12,120 nt of DNA from Promethearchaeota archaeon. Its GTDB lineage: Archaea; Asgardarchaeota; Thorarchaeia; Thorarchaeales; Thorarchaeaceae. Shown here piece by piece: positions 5,700 through 10,415 of the stretch. Under the pieces are notes generated by a model. That model ran no database searches. It saw only the letters and a list, made by a program, of their open reading frames with translations, and was not told where the DNA came from. Made by a program: the position numbers and the translations under genes. The DNA is taken from positions 1-12,120 of the forward strand of contig JBHLPF010000066.1 of assembly GCA_048939765.1 (NCBI GenBank). The letters run 5' to 3'. The first letter of the stretch is position 1. The number at the start of each line of letters is the position of its first letter.

Positions 5700-5750
5700 T
5701 TATAGGGCAAAAGAGGGCACTTTTATAAGCACGACTTGATAGCTAGTAAT
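5700..5750 (+). promoter_or_regulatory. Archaeal promoter (purine-rich BRE region + TATA) for the sORF-A/hypothetical/tfb unit
   Basis: TTATAGGGCAAAAGAG followed by TTTTATAA at 5721-5728; GTAAT 25 nt downstream of the TATA start. Confidence 0.65.
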
Positions 5751-5882
5751 GATTGAGAGAGTAAGTAGAGAATAAGTTCGGTTGTATTCTTGTATTGACC
5801 GATTGTGCGGTTATATTGCATTCATTGTGCGAATCCCGAAATGTCCTACTTTGGCTCTGAGCCGTATCTGAAGTGAATAGGA

Positions 5883-6044
5883 ATGACAGAAGAAGGACTA
5901 AACGCTAGATTGCCAATTACAGAATGGTTTGATATTGAGAGAAGAATGGCCATAGTGGCACGAATGACTGCAGACAGGCCCTACTTCGAAATCACAAAAC
6001 CCACAGGCTCTCCTCGAAACGATGATGACGAGGAGAAGTCGTAG
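5883..6044 (+). CDS. Unannotated small protein A (53 aa): MTEEGLNARLPITEWFDIERRMAIVARMTADRPYFEITKPTGSPRNDDDEEKS
   Basis: Hand-translated; stop abuts next start (TAG-ATG, 6042-6047); 17/23 identity to sORF-B core with synonymous codon changes. Confidence 0.85.
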   Translation: MTEEGLNARLPITEWFDIERRMAIVARMTADRPYFEITKPTGSPRNDDDEEKS

Positions 6045-6557
6045 ATGAACATCAACATTGTTCATTCAACACCATCAGAGGCTTGGAATCAGAAGCTGCC
6101 GCCAATTGGTTTCTCGCTGGATTACTCAGGAACTGCTATGACAGTTACGAAGTTTCCTGGAACCGACTGCTATCTCAGATTGTTGAGGCCACCACAAGGC
6201 TCCTTGGAGTTTGTTGTTAAGTCATACAGAAGTGAAACCCACAATCATAATACACTGAGAAATCTTATTCATGAGTTTGGCCTTGAGATTGGGTCTTCGG
6301 CGATGATGGGAAAGACCACTACAATCAGAATTGGAGAGATAGATCGCAGAGCGCGGGAGTTTGTGTCCGGAAATGGGTTATCACGTAAGAAATGGCTAGC
6401 CATGATAATCCCATCTCCTGATGGTGGCCCCTATGGGTTGCTTGTGATATTCGGTTTGTACATAGGATCCAACGGAAGTGGGAAACGCATTAGGATTTCA
6501 GAAAATCCTGTATTCAGGAAGCTAATGGACAGCTTTCAATTAACAGGTGGGCGTTAG
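6045..6557 (+). CDS. Hypothetical protein (170 aa), possibly PsbP/Mog1-like fold
   Basis: Coupled to sORF-A and 12 nt upstream of tfb; N-terminal GFSLDY strand and C-terminal FRKLMDSFQL resemble PsbP/DcrB/Mog1-type proteins (fold call is inference). Confidence 0.75.
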   Translation: MNINIVHSTPSEAWNQKLPPIGFSLDYSGTAMTVTKFPGTDCYLRLLRPPQGSLEFVVKSYRSETHNHNTLRNLIHEFGLEIGSSAMMGKTTTIRIGEIDRRAREFVSGNGLSRKKWLAMIIPSPDGGPYGLLVIFGLYIGSNGSGKRIRISENPVFRKLMDSFQLTGGR

Positions 6558-6569
6558 GAGTAGATAGAG

Positions 6570-7520
6570 ATGGCAAATTCAGTTGGACGGAAGAAGGCTC
6601 ATTTGAATAAGCCAGAAATGTGTTTGGGCTGCGGAGGGACTTCATTCACCAAGGACTATGCTCGTGCAGAACGTATCTGTACGTCGTGTGGGCTGGTTGT
6701 ATCGGAGCGTTCCGCTGACAGAGGGCCTGAATGGAGAGCCTTCACAGCAGAGGAGAGAGATGCAAGAGCGAGAACAGGGGCTCCAATGAGGCTAAGTATA
6801 GCCGATAAGGGTCTCTCGACTACAATTGACTGGCGAAACAAAGATGCGAGTGGTAGGGCATTGAAGAGCAATACGCGTGCTGCAATCTATCGATTGAGAA
6901 AATGGCATATCAGAACGAGGGTGCATAGTTCTCAACATAGGAATCTAGGTATTGCAATGAGTGAGATGGAGAGGCTCTCCTCGCAGCTCGGAATTCCGCG
7001 CGAGGCCAGAGAAACTGCAGCTCTCATATACAGGAAAGCTCTGGCAAAGAAACTGGTCAGAGGAAGAAGTATCGAGGCCGTCGTTGCAGCATCAATCTAT
7101 CTTGCTTGTAGGATTCATCGGATTCCCAGGCGGCTGGATGAAGTAGTAGCTGAGTCAAAGACTAATAGGAAGCAGGTTGGTCAAGCTGTTCGACTGGTTA
7201 TCTCTCGCGTAAATATCAACGTGCCACTTGCCTCTGCAAAAGACCTCATACCAAGACTCTCCTCTGATCTTGGTCTTGAAGGAAGAACCATGAGGAAAGC
7301 TACCGAGATAGTTAGGAGAGCCAAAGAGGGCCGAATAACCATAGGAAAGGATCCTGGTGGTATCGCGGGGGCTGCGTTGTATATAGCTGGAATACTTGAA
7401 GAAGATAAGCGGACGCAAAGGCAAATAGCGAGAGTTTCGCGAGTTACAGAAGTCACAATTCGCAACAGATACAAGGAGCTTGTCCGTTCTCTTGGAATTT
7501 CATTTGATACTGATTTGTAG
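6570..7520 (+). CDS. tfb: Transcription initiation factor IIB (TFB)
   Basis: Zn ribbon CLGC...CTSC, B-reader DRGPEWRAF, RTGAP, GLSTTI, two cyclin repeats (LVRGRSIE, GKDP), C-terminal VTEVTIRNRYKEL HTH; AGGAG RBS. Confidence 0.97.
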   Translation: MANSVGRKKAHLNKPEMCLGCGGTSFTKDYARAERICTSCGLVVSERSADRGPEWRAFTAEERDARARTGAPMRLSIADKGLSTTIDWRNKDASGRALKSNTRAAIYRLRKWHIRTRVHSSQHRNLGIAMSEMERLSSQLGIPREARETAALIYRKALAKKLVRGRSIEAVVAASIYLACRIHRIPRRLDEVVAESKTNRKQVGQAVRLVISRVNINVPLASAKDLIPRLSSDLGLEGRTMRKATEIVRRAKEGRITIGKDPGGIAGAALYIAGILEEDKRTQRQIARVSRVTEVTIRNRYKELVRSLGISFDTDL

Positions 7521-7608
7521 CCAAAGAAGACAGAAAAGACGCCCAATGAAAATGGATAGAAAAGGATTGCATTCAATGAACACCTCCATATCTGAACAGA
7601 TTCGAATC

Positions 7609-8103
7609 CTAGAGTCCCGTATATGAACCGATCAGATAAGAAAGGAAATTTACAAGCCTTGTGCGATTCTCGGAGTCTATTGCGGAAATCTCTAGAGTGG
7701 GCAGATTTGTCATTTTTTCTATGTGAGATTTGCTTAGAGACTCATCCAAGTCTTGCTTATTTGCAACAACAGCGAATCGAGTTTCAGGAAATGACTCTCT
7801 AAGAAACCTCAGAGAGTATTTGATGTGACTTACATCCTCTCTTGTGCTGTCAGTGACAATTAGCAGGTAACGATGAAATGGTCTGCTATTCCTAAGGAAG
7901 GACCTGGAGAATATTTCCAGCTTTTCAGGTGCGGAACTTGATGTCTGAAGCTCCCAAATTGCAAAGTCAAAGTTCTTGGATTTCAGCCTGGTCGCTATGC
8001 CACTACTCTCAGCTTTATCATTTAATAGGTGAATAAGTTCAGTCTTGCCTACCTGCGGCTCACCTATGATTGCTATTGCTATCTCTCTGATCGGTTCTGT
8101 CAA
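7609..8103 (-). CDS. Small Ras/Arf-like P-loop GTPase with degenerate G3 (164 aa)
   Basis: G1 GEPQVGKT, G4 NKQD, G5 SAI; G3 position reads WELQ instead of WDxxG; probable TTG start at 8103 since the ORF upstream of that overlaps ssb. Confidence 0.8.
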   Translation of the reverse strand: MTEPIREIAIAIIGEPQVGKTELIHLLNDKAESSGIATRLKSKNFDFAIWELQTSSSAPEKLEIFSRSFLRNSRPFHRYLLIVTDSTREDVSHIKYSLRFLRESFPETRFAVVANKQDLDESLSKSHIEKMTNLPTLEISAIDSENRTRLVNFLSYLIGSYTGL

Positions 8104-8158
8104 TTGTAAATTAACCCAGATTGTATTGTGTTCTATTGCTATTGACTCTAACGAACCA

Positions 8159-8193
8159 CTCCTACAACCAAATTGGTTGGATTCCTCTAGGAG
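8159..8193. repeat. Nested inverted repeat between ssb and GTPase gene
   Basis: CAACCAA-A-TTGGTTG (8165-8179) enclosed by CTCCTA (8159-8164) / TAGGAG (8188-8193). Confidence 0.55.
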
Positions 8194-8197
8194 ACTG

Positions 8198-8743
8198 CTA
8201 ATATCTCTGTCTCCTTCGACGACGATAGTCCCTTCTGTTTCTGGACGAATAGCCTCTATAGCCTCCACCACCATATCTACCACGGTCGGACCCATAAGAC
8301 CGACCGGAGTATCCTTGATAGTAGTGACGTCGTGGTCTACCATGATCAGCTTCGGACAGGTCATTGTCCATTTTGACGTCAGTGATCTCTTCCTCTCTCT
8401 CACTGATTTCACTATCTCGACTAATTTTCAGTCTGAGATTTCCTCGAAAGAGACCAGTATGTGCATTCTTCAGGACGTAGGTCTTGCCAGCCTCGAGTGC
8501 TTCTATCATGTCATTCCATAACGGAAGTGTCACAATTCCAGTTTCGTCCCCCACAATTGCGCTGGATACTCTGTTAATGCTCCCATCACGTCTGGATGTT
8601 ACTTCACGAACGTCGCCCTTTTCCAATACTTTAAAGCTGATGTCAATATTGCTCATTCTAGTTTCCAGGTTGGCGACTTTCACTTCATTACTTGCTTCGG
8701 GTTTCTCTTCAGAAGATTCAATTTCAGAATTCATTAGCATCAC
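8198..8743 (-). CDS. ssb: Single-OB-fold single-stranded nucleic-acid-binding protein (crenarchaeal SSB/RPA-like) with R/G/Y-rich tail
   Basis: KVANL, VGDETG...LPLW, LKNAHTGLFRG OB-fold pattern as in Sulfolobus SSB; start may be 8743, 8740 or 8734. Confidence 0.9.
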   Translation of the reverse strand: MMLMNSEIESSEEKPEASNEVKVANLETRMSNIDISFKVLEKGDVREVTSRRDGSINRVSSAIVGDETGIVTLPLWNDMIEALEAGKTYVLKNAHTGLFRGNLRLKISRDSEISEREEEITDVKMDNDLSEADHGRPRRHYYQGYSGRSYGSDRGRYGGGGYRGYSSRNRRDYRRRRRQRY

Positions 8744-8861
8744 AATGGTTGAACAAAGTGGCTTTTGTAGGAATTATCAACTTGGTGTGTTCTCCACTAC
8801 TAATTCGCATAGAAAATACCATTCTTTGATTCAACACTTAATGGAACAGTATAGTGGAGGA

Positions 8862-8869
8862 TATATAAA
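8862..8869 (-). promoter_or_regulatory. TATA box for the ssb/GTPase unit
   Basis: TTTATATA on the minus strand about 120 nt upstream of ssb. Confidence 0.5.
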
Positions 8870-8933
8870 TCTCAGGATAGTCCTTTAAAAGGGGAAAAGG
8901 GTCATATAAAATTCTATTTTCCCTCTTCAGGCC

Positions 8934-8981
8934 TTATAAAGGGCAAAGAGTTTTAAGCAGTCGCGGGACTCTTCGTGTAAT
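8934..8981 (+). promoter_or_regulatory. Promoter for the sORF-B/KamA unit
   Basis: TTATAAAGGGCAAAGAG followed by TTTTAAGC at 8951-8958 and GTAAT 26 nt downstream; resembles the 5700-5750 promoter. Confidence 0.6.
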
Positions 8982-9144
8982 AGCTGAAGAAAAGTAGGAA
9001 TAACCTTTGGCAGGTTAGGCAAAACCGCCTAGTGTGAATTTCCTATAATATGGAAACGCATGGAACTTGCAGAATCGATAGAACGAACCGGTCCTGATTG
9101 ATTAAGTGATGTCGATTATTCCTGCAGAAGAGATGAAAAGATAA

Positions 9145-9315
9145 ATGAGAGTAAATAAACAAGAGGAAGAGGACACTCCAATCGTAGATGATAGGAAGAG
9201 GTTAGCAGCCAGGATCCCAATCAGTGAATGGGATGATATCGAACGGAGAATGGCAATTATCTCAAGAATGTCCACAGAGCCTGCCAGAGAGAGTAGTCAG
9301 GGCGTGGGTTCTTGA
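9145..9315 (+). CDS. Unannotated small protein B (56 aa): MRVNKQEEEDTPIVDDRKRLAARIPISEWDDIERRMAIISRMSTEPARESSQGVGS
   Basis: Hand-translated; TGA overlaps the TTG start of the KamA-family gene (TTGA, 9312-9315); paralog of sORF-A. Confidence 0.85.
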   Translation: MRVNKQEEEDTPIVDDRKRLAARIPISEWDDIERRMAIISRMSTEPARESSQGVGS

Positions 9316-10415
9316 GCCACGCTCTAGACGGGGATGAATTAATCACCTCCGTCGATGAGATTGGAGAGATTCTGGATCTTACTGAGCCCGAAGAAAGAAT
9401 TCTCGATCGTTTGATTGAGATGCATCCAATTCGTGTTCCTGAGTATTATTTCTCCTTAATAGATGAACAAGACCCAGAGGATCCAATAAGGAAAATGGCA
9501 CTTCCTAGTAGTACCGAATCAATTGCAGAGGGTTCATACGACACTAGCGGAGAACTTTCCAACACGATTCTACCTGGCTTGCAGCATAAATACAAACAGA
9601 CTGCTTTGATTCTTGCCACCGCCGAGTGTGCAATGTACTGCCGACATTGTTTCAGAAAGAGACTTGTCGGACTGCCAAGTCAAGAGATTCTAAGAGATGT
9701 GGATGCAGCTGTGGAGTACATCAGGAACCATAAAGAGATCAATAATGTACTCATCACTGGCGGGGATCCTTTCACTCTAAGCACTTCCCGGATAGGCAAT
9801 CTACTTGACGTGCTTTCAACAGTCGCTCATTTAGACTTCATTAGGTTTGGTTCGCGCATCCCTGTAACGTATCCTATGCGTATTCTGCATGATAATGAAC
9901 TATTAGAAGTCTTGAGAAACTACTCGAAGGCGTTTAGAAGATTATTTCTAGTGACACAATTCAATCATCCAAGGGAAATAACTGAAGAATCTATGGCTGC
10001 AGTTGATCGGTTGATGTCAGCTGGTGTGATTGTAAATAACCAGACAGTCCTCCTGAAGGGAGTGAACGACGACCCAGATGTATTGGCTGCTCTTCAGAAC
10101 AGACTTGTTGGTATTGGGGTGAACCCATACTACATGTTTCAGTGCCGCCCTGTTGCTAGAGTGAAGAAGACCTTTCAAGTTTCCCTCTTCGATGGATATC
10201 AGATTGTTGAGGGAGCAAAGAAACTCCTCAATGGTCACAGTAAACGATTCAGATATATAATGTCCCACCACACTGGCAAAATCGAGATTCTTGGGATACT
10301 TGACGGAAAATTCCTCTTCAAGTATCATCAGGCAAAGAATTCCAGTGATCAGGGTAGAATCTTCACAAGAAAACTGGATAGAACTGCTACATGGCTGGAC
10401 GACTTGAAAGCGTAG
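9312..10415 (+). CDS. KamA family radical SAM aminomutase-like protein
   Basis: GLQHKY, CAMYCRHCFRKR (CxxxCxxC), ITGGDP, FNHPRE, NQTVLLKGVND, PYY, TGK (PLP lysine position). Confidence 0.92.
   Translation: MSHALDGDELITSVDEIGEILDLTEPEERILDRLIEMHPIRVPEYYFSLIDEQDPEDPIRKMALPSSTESIAEGSYDTSGELSNTILPGLQHKYKQTALILATAECAMYCRHCFRKRLVGLPSQEILRDVDAAVEYIRNHKEINNVLITGGDPFTLSTSRIGNLLDVLSTVAHLDFIRFGSRIPVTYPMRILHDNELLEVLRNYSKAFRRLFLVTQFNHPREITEESMAAVDRLMSAGVIVNNQTVLLKGVNDDPDVLAALQNRLVGIGVNPYYMFQCRPVARVKKTFQVSLFDGYQIVEGAKKLLNGHSKRFRYIMSHHTGKIEILGILDGKFLFKYHQAKNSSDQGRIFTRKLDRTATWLDDLKA

Follow-up and report, generated by a model that had tools for sequence, protein, structure and literature searches.

Small open reading frames (ORFs) at the head of larger genes have been described as arrest peptides (SecM, TnaC, MifM and VemP), whose stall site occupies a set position close to the regulated start, as translated leaders that act by termination-reinitiation behind a structured or riboswitch-type 5' leader, and as genes for single-helix accessory or regulatory microproteins. 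Here we describe two micro-ORFs, mA and mB, that head two gene units in a Thorarchaeota metagenome-assembled genome (MAG). The stretch of DNA analysed, called the window below, is the whole of a 12.1-kb contig (JBHLPF010000066.1) of this 3.37-Mb assembly. No known relatives of eukaryotes are closer than the Asgard archaea, in which the majority of lineage-specific genes are still uncharacterised.

The two micro-ORFs resemble the arrest peptides in being short upstream ORFs with a conserved contiguous motif that contains Trp and is often followed by Pro. Unlike SecM, TnaC, MifM and VemP, they belong to a family in which the stop codon lies at varying distances, some members have no Pro, and monocistronic and fused copies occur. 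They share with translated leaders a small first ORF that abuts or overlaps the main start and a long, conserved, structured 5' leader, whereas their peptide is strongly conserved and is also found free-standing and fused, and no Rfam riboswitch class matches. The likeness to single-helix microproteins lies in the length of about 50 aa, in the one amphipathic helix, in a gene that stands beside a candidate partner and is co-translated with it, and in one Rosetta-stone fusion. Here, in contrast, the partner is not fixed (a KamA-like enzyme, a PsbP-like protein or none adjacent) and the binding is a candidate one. No homology of mA or mB to described microproteins was found, and literature searches on Thorarchaeota microproteins and on KamA-type peptide-modifying systems gave nothing relevant. 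Operon-leading, translationally coupled microproteins behind a structured leader are thus a known kind of element, whereas neither this family nor its partners or private promoter word have been described. New here are the predicted PsbP/Mog1 fold of one downstream product, the fused, monocistronic and decayed copies, the dual coding of Shine-Dalgarno (SD) sequences and an Asp293-to-Arg change in the KamA-like enzyme. We tentatively favour the reading that the helix of mA and mB works in trans, binding to a larger protein, and is made in step with the protein encoded downstream.

Two paralogous microproteins under purifying selection

The original prediction had pointed to a 23-residue core in both ORFs and had argued from its codons that selection acts on the peptide. 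Both ORFs lie where it had placed them and both cores translate as it had quoted them, with 17 of the 23 residues identical, a nucleotide identity of only 46/69 and different codons at 10 of the 14 identical residues that have degenerate codons. BLASTP aligned mA and mB with 21/38 identities (E = 2e-13), a sequence match far beyond chance.

For comparison we used 41 related genomes, 24 of them in one family-level clade and 16 elsewhere in the phylum. The ratio of nonsynonymous to synonymous rates (dN/dS), proposed earlier as a check and obtained by Nei-Gojobori counts over the 23-codon core, came to 0.07 across 7 genomes in the case of mA and to 0.10 across 10 genomes in that of mB, i.e. selection is strongly purifying. 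Between the paralogues, the proportions of synonymous and nonsynonymous differences (pS and pN) were 0.86 and 0.21. More distant lineages gave core pN/pS values of 0.15-0.33, with synonymous sites saturated. As expected from the prediction, the core was free of stops and frameshifts among 38 family representatives and the matches in the 41 genomes. Moreover, a GGTG(A)-type SD sequence precedes the ATG of the micro-ORF by 5-10 nt in nearly all lineages. Taken together, the sequence data argue that mA and mB are real, translated paralogues under strong selection.

Both genes had also been called hidden. This is correct for the ORF track on which the prediction was based, but orthologues are annotated as 'hypothetical protein' in several NCBI Thorarchaeota MAGs. 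At 90% identity, Thorarchaeota-type MAGs held 17 orthologue clusters of mA and 9 of mB. The 3.37-Mb assembly contained mA and mB only and no third copy. Antisense ORFs of 55 and 57 aa (minus strand, 5898-6065 and 9102-9275) overlap both micro-ORFs; because substitutions in the sense frame are mostly synonymous, we regard them as by-products.

Extent and predicted fold of the family

A profile search against 1.84 billion representative sequences yielded 38 clusters at 50% identity, all from Thorarchaeota-type Asgard MAGs. The members are 42-74 aa long, except for one 226-aa fusion, and carry the signature [LIV]PIxEWx[DE][IL]ER[RK]MAI[IV][AS]RM[TS]x[DE][RP]P (58 aligned sequences). All of these sequences carry R20 and M28; W15 and R27 are each kept in 57, I24 in 55 and P11 in 51. 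Members were found in 18 of the 24 genomes of one family-level clade of Thorarchaeia, and one weak match (E = 4.8e-4) was found among the 16 genomes elsewhere in the phylum; by these searches the family is specific to that clade. The claim that it is undescribed was borne out, since Pfam (E ≤ 1), NCBIfam, a profile search of the PDB (E ≤ 10) and the ESM Atlas were all without a match.

AlphaFold2 (AF2) modelled mA as a single helix (residues 17-29) between low-confidence flanks, with a mean predicted local distance difference test score (pLDDT) of 69. The only folded element is predicted to be a helix of ~17 residues, [ST]EWx[DE][IL]ER[RK]MAI[IV][AS]RM, in which nearly every position is conserved. 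Since the model consists of one helix and low-confidence flanks, the microprotein presumably cannot fold alone.

Several known kinds of small protein were considered and rejected. A ribbon-helix-helix regulator (CopG/Arc/MetJ) has an N-terminal beta-strand and two helices in ~45 aa; Pfam gave no match at E ≤ 1, and the single helix of the AF2 model is accompanied by no strand. One member (P0017) bears the JGI name TrpR/YerC-like, for which neither Pfam nor NCBIfam gave a match and the PDB profile search returned nothing at E ≤ 10; members of 42-74 aa with one helix do not suit this name, which stands for a helical bundle of ~100 aa with a helix-turn-helix. LysW/ArgW carriers have Zn-ribbon Cys pairs, an acceptor Glu in a C-terminal EDWGE-type motif and an ATP-grasp LysX encoded alongside; mA and mB have no Cys and a variable tail, and no ATP-grasp protein was found among the window ORFs scanned against Pfam, the remaining ORFs being unscanned.

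Coupling of the micro-ORFs to the genes downstream

As predicted, each micro-ORF heads its unit and is translationally coupled to the next gene, an arrangement that orthologues keep. The TAG of mA (6042-6044) directly abuts the ATG (6045) of the gene for a 170-aa protein, h170, and the TGA of mB (9313-9315) is overlapped by the TTG (9312) of the KamA-like gene (TTGA). Wherever a downstream gene exists the micro-ORF stands first, and the two meet at TAG-ATG or TTGA or lie 5-18 nt apart. The coordinates of both units are given in Table 1.

The coding of the tails is double. GAGGAG codons of the acidic mA tail also form the SD sequence of the next gene, ahead of the TAG-ATG junction, and the codons of the mB tail hold the SD-like AGGGCGTGG for the next gene, with AGGG(C/T)GTG before TTGA. 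This dual coding explains much of what had been described as unrelated, charged and likely disordered flanks: the low AF2 confidence agrees with disorder, while the C-terminal tails owe part of their sequence to the SD of the next gene.

Table 1. Features of the mA and mB units in the window
Feature	Position	Strand	Basis
mA-unit promoter word, TTATAGGGCAAAAGAG then CTTTTATAAGC (TATA-like)	5700..5730	+	conserved in 7 orthologues
mA-unit conserved 5' leader, start inferred from the TATA position	5752..5882	+	alignment, RNAalifold
mA, 53-aa microprotein; core 5898-5966	5883..6044	+	ORF list, BLASTP, dN/dS
h170, 170-aa PsbP/Mog1/DcrB-like-fold protein (predicted); ATG abuts mA stop	6045..6557	+	AF2, Foldseek
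TFB/TFIIB paralogue, 12 nt after the h170 gene	6570..7520	+	NF001658, Pfam
mB-unit promoter word, TTATAAAGGGCAAAGAG then TTTTAAGC	8934..8958	+	orthologue alignment, genome search
mB-unit structured 5' leader (predicted): three hairpins, long invariant helix, closing helix	8980..9144	+	RNAalifold, 10 orthologues
mB, 56-aa microprotein; core 9202-9270	9145..9315	+	ORF list, BLASTP, dN/dS
KamA-family radical SAM/PLP aminomutase-like gene, TTG start in the mB stop	9312..10415	+	TIGR00238

The KamA-like enzyme downstream of mB

The product of the gene after mB scored 243.3 bits with TIGR00238 (cut-off 199.2) and contains a CxxxCxxC motif (CAMYCRHC on the cluster motif of lysine 2,3-aminomutase, LAM), which places it by sequence in the KamA family of radical S-adenosylmethionine (SAM) enzymes with pyridoxal 5'-phosphate (PLP). 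It was rejected as a LAM equivalog: TIGR03820 gave 233.9 bits against a cut-off of 525.4, and all equivalog models remained far below their cut-offs. In common with KamA/AblA, EpmB and glutamate 2,3-aminomutase it has, besides the cluster motif and the TIGR00238 match, the N-terminal 'PxRxxxYYxSLID' region. It differs from them in its short N-terminus, in SHHTGK in place of the usual PGGGGK (read from the sequence) and in the residue aligned with Asp293 of LAM (2A5H), which is Arg (QCD to QCR); Asp330 lies beyond the alignment. Because Arg replaces the lysine-binding Asp293, the substrate is probably not lysine, and it may be an acidic amino acid.

In the 41 related genomes, a micro-ORF lay directly upstream of the KamA-like gene in 9/9 orthologues found, and the order from mB to this gene is kept within the genus. 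The same order occurs in three metagenomic lineages with ~60% KamA identity and otherwise unrelated neighbourhoods. This is the widest association of the family and probably the ancestral one.

Decay was seen at locus L028 (contig C72 of genome G011; 55-1764 and 7880-8227). There, a decayed micro copy (ERR to KWK, RM to RI) stands with a truncated N-terminal fragment of KamA beside a transposase gene of the insertion-sequence type, and behind a second copy, which is intact, there are only remnants of KamA before the gene for ribosomal protein L10e. In two lineages, the KamA-like gene or what is left of it precedes a PP-loop ATPase/asparagine-synthase-like gene (L045, 4590-5399; L028, 1761-3116), whose product may catalyse a later step of the same pathway.

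The predicted PsbP/Mog1-fold protein and TFB downstream of mA

The AF2 model of h170 (pLDDT 89, predicted template modelling score 0.87) matched PsbP, CyanoP, Mog1, DcrB and SciW/Eag in Foldseek, with E-values of 9e-6 to 1e-3 and template modelling (TM) scores of 0.5-0.6 to PDB entries. Matches to ESM Atlas structures reached TM 0.63-0.78 and included the PsbP_2 and DcrB clusters. By structure, the model resembles the fold of PsbP, Mog1p, DcrB and DUF1795 (Eag, SciW). Unlike these proteins, h170 is cytoplasmic and archaeal, stands in an operon with a TFB and has no sequence-family match: it matched nothing in Pfam or NCBIfam, the PsbP/Mog1 models PF01789, PF18933 and PF08786 included. Eag/SciW chaperones grasp helices and Mog1 binds the Ran GTPase, as PDB entry titles reflect.

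The next gene encodes a TFB, with 410.7 bits against NF001658 (cut-off 384) and matches to PF08271 (Zn_Ribbon_TF) and, in two stretches, PF00382 (TFIIB). It is one of six TFB paralogues in the assembly. The order mA, h170, TFB is kept in 6 related genomes. A further contig (L038) has a micro-ORF followed by h170 and stops before any TFB could show.

In one protein (P0040, 226 aa; L037, 8001-8681) the micro core is fused in frame to the N-terminus of a distant h170 homologue, which suggests a partnership between the two. A complex prediction for mA and h170, both entered as alignments, scored 0.00; it was run without controls and is not evidence either way.

Some observations on the neighbourhood were made alongside. 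A further TFB paralogue (~50% identical) is convergent to the micro-KamA unit at six loci of relatives (among them L022, 11398-12285, and L023, 3259-4143), and it is absent from the matching place in the window, between 10415 and 10450. About 1 kb from the h170 gene, the opposite strand encodes a small GTPase of Arf/Roc-like type (7609-8412, minus). As Mog1 is a Ran-GTPase-binding protein, this GTPase/Mog1-like pairing in an Asgard archaeon may merit attention. The longest GTPase ORF overlaps an SSB-like OB-fold ORF (8198-8743, minus) by ~215 nt, so that translation of the GTPase probably starts further downstream. In two of the related genomes the match to the GTPase comes in two pieces, which may mean a frameshift or an insertion.

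Free-standing copies

At three loci, monocistronic micro copies lie between genes of the opposite strand, and in two lineages a micro copy stands behind a cluster that is fwdDBA-like (a name given by the N-terminal sequences alone, without a library scan). Such free-standing copies keep the core, with pN/pS of 0.24-0.33 and synonymous sites saturated. The original prediction had offered a cis-acting leader peptide as one reading. As a general explanation this failed: monocistronic copies with no co-oriented downstream gene are still selected, and one copy is an in-frame fusion. A purely cis-acting leader is not general because the free-standing copies remain under selection.

A common promoter word and conserved 5' leaders

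A pattern drawn post hoc from the mA and mB sites, TTATA(R)GGCAAA(A)GAG then TTTTA(TA)AGC, had its sole occurrences in the 3.37-Mb genome at the two promoter words of Table 1. Its retention between paralogues with saturated synonymous sites argues for function. At four loci in other genera, family members lie behind double TATA-like modules of a comparable kind (TTATAAGG..CAAAGA..TAATAAGC).

The leaders, 130-165 nt before the micro-ORFs, had a mean column identity of ~76% in both alignments (mA, 7 genomes; mB, 10 orthologues). Synonymous sites of the mA core had ~59% identity (pS 0.41), below the 76% of the leader. Structures were predicted by RNAalifold. In the mA leader, AAGTAG (5763-5768) can pair with CTACTT (5846-5851) and close a domain of ~80 nt, a layout comparable to that of the mB leader; the pairs of the closing helix never vary and compensatory change was found in 3 pairs only, so that the alignment gives weak support for structure. 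In the mB leader, 96% of cells pair and 7 pairs are compensatory, compared with ≤3 in slid controls. By this covariation the mB leader is structured.

Rfam gave no match across the whole window at E ≤ 1. When each leader alignment was searched against the whole genome with nhmmer, only its own locus was found, so that, short shared words apart, no homology between the two leaders is detectable. The common promoter word and the conserved 5' leaders make it probable that both units are switched together. This would fit common regulation by something, which need not be the peptide that the original prediction had cast in this role.

A proposed role in trans for the conserved helix

A protein-level role in trans is suggested because a single conserved helix cannot fold alone and because both selected free-standing copies and a fusion exist. 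Coupling and linkage make the KamA-like enzyme and the PsbP-like protein the first candidate partners, and the structural matches of h170 to the helix-grasping Eag/SciW chaperones and to Mog1 also speak for this reading. We propose that the helix docks in trans on a larger protein, which for mB would be the KamA-like enzyme and for mA the PsbP/Mog1-fold protein of the TFB operon. Translational coupling, through abutting or overlapping stop and start codons and an SD sequence in the micro tail, would give a fixed ratio to the partner, and the common promoter word and conserved 5' leader would drive each whole unit. If the helix is a regulatory subunit, it would provide a handle on the control of alternative TFBs in archaea and on the function of a new KamA subfamily, possibly in beta-amino-acid metabolism.

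A bolder extension, to which we give a low probability, is that the microprotein is an exchangeable helix subunit. It would alternate between the radical SAM/PLP aminomutase and the PsbP/Mog1-like partner of an alternative TFB, and so relay a metabolic state sensed by the enzyme to the choice of initiation factor, with the common promoter word and leaders as part of the system. If true, this would be a new kind of metabolite-to-TFB switch in an Asgard archaeon.

Several observations weigh against a role in trans with these partners. The microprotein is present in five genomes (92-97% complete) in which no KamA-like orthologue was detected with this query, and the same 'QCRP' subfamily of KamA-like enzymes occurs in another Asgard family (two loci) with no micro-ORF. 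As each is found without the other, the KamA partnership is not obligatory in either direction. The P0040 fusion is a singleton on one 65-kb contig and differs by one codon at the junction, GGA in place of a TGA stop; a recent mutation or an error could account for it. In an SMTZ1-83-like lineage (L050, 2325-2504; L010) the mA-type ORF has lost W15, R20 and M28 and keeps its length and a 4-nt overlap with h170. This retention despite the loss of the core suggests a value in cis, for coupling, that is independent of the peptide. Finally, a peptide that is read in the ribosomal tunnel could equally be conserved on every face of its helix.

Alternative explanations

We considered whether the micro-ORF is a cis-acting translated leader that works by termination-reinitiation, with possible ribosome pausing on the conserved peptide, so that the leader RNA gates entry and the peptide matters mainly while nascent. 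The close junctions, the invariable first position where a downstream gene exists and the weak TTG start of the KamA-like gene inside the overlap are consistent with this explanation. So are the conserved leaders, structured in the case of mB, and the contiguous run of ~17 residues that is conserved on all helix faces and often followed by Pro-rich DPP, EPP or DRP. The lineage that keeps ORF and overlap although its core has decayed points in the same direction. However, purifying selection persists in monocistronic copies with no co-oriented gene behind them, and one copy is fused in frame to a PsbP-like domain. Moreover, the distance from core to stop ranges from 2 to ~40 codons, and several members terminate directly behind RM[TS]xx, without any proline. 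A leader or pause in cis may act in the coupled copies and cannot explain the monocistronic ones. We regard it as unlikely for the family. If the ORF serves coupling only, it would still be a clear archaeal translated leader behind an unclassified structured RNA.

The microprotein might instead descend from the N-terminal segment of a KamA-family enzyme, by partial 5' duplication or fission, and be the detachable N-terminal helix of the short KamA-like enzyme that was later duplicated elsewhere. In canonical Asgard KamA proteins the match to TIGR00238 begins at position 2-6, in the Thorarchaeal KamA-like ones only at position 15-24. By both hmmsearch and hhalign, residues 4-18 of the microprotein (L..[IV]P..[DE]W.D) align with positions 7-21 at the N-terminus of canonical KamA, a segment that is absent from the adjacent gene, and hhalign gave P = 0.008. 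The similarity was spotted by eye before it was tested, though, and it is not significant, with an hhalign probability of 5% and HMM scores of ~0 bits. When a canonical N-terminal profile was run against 60,333 genome ORFs, the micro-ORFs were not among the 110 listed matches (E ≤ 100). Nothing in KamA corresponds to the half of the core that is conserved best (IERRMAIxxRM), the KamA subfamily with a short N-terminus in another Asgard family has no micro-ORF, and no unsplit form was found among the 1.84 billion representatives. Such a descent appears quite improbable.

A small ORF immediately upstream of a radical SAM gene, with a conserved N-terminal and central part and a variable, often acidic C-terminal tail, also recalls a peptide substrate or carrier of the enzyme, either a precursor like those of peptides made on ribosomes and modified after translation (RiPPs) or an acidic-tailed carrier like LysW. 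The enzyme, however, matches only Radical_SAM core and KamA-family models and has neither a SPASM domain nor a RiPP recognition element. KamA-type PLP aminomutase chemistry requires a free alpha-amino group, which counts against a peptide substrate. No protease, transporter or ATP-grasp ligase was found in the window or related loci; the neighbours in the window are SSB-like, GTPase and TrxR-like genes. The tails are unconserved, partly set by the SD of the next gene and missing in several members, and the microprotein has no Cys. It also persists where no KamA-like orthologue was detected and in monocistronic copies. We consider a substrate or carrier role to be very unlikely.

That mA and mB are chance ORFs within conserved non-coding leaders, from which no protein is made, has a negligible probability: the non-coding flanks of both regions are indeed conserved too, but the excess of synonymous substitutions within orthologues and between the paralogues already contradicts this explanation, and the SD sequences and an intact core are kept.

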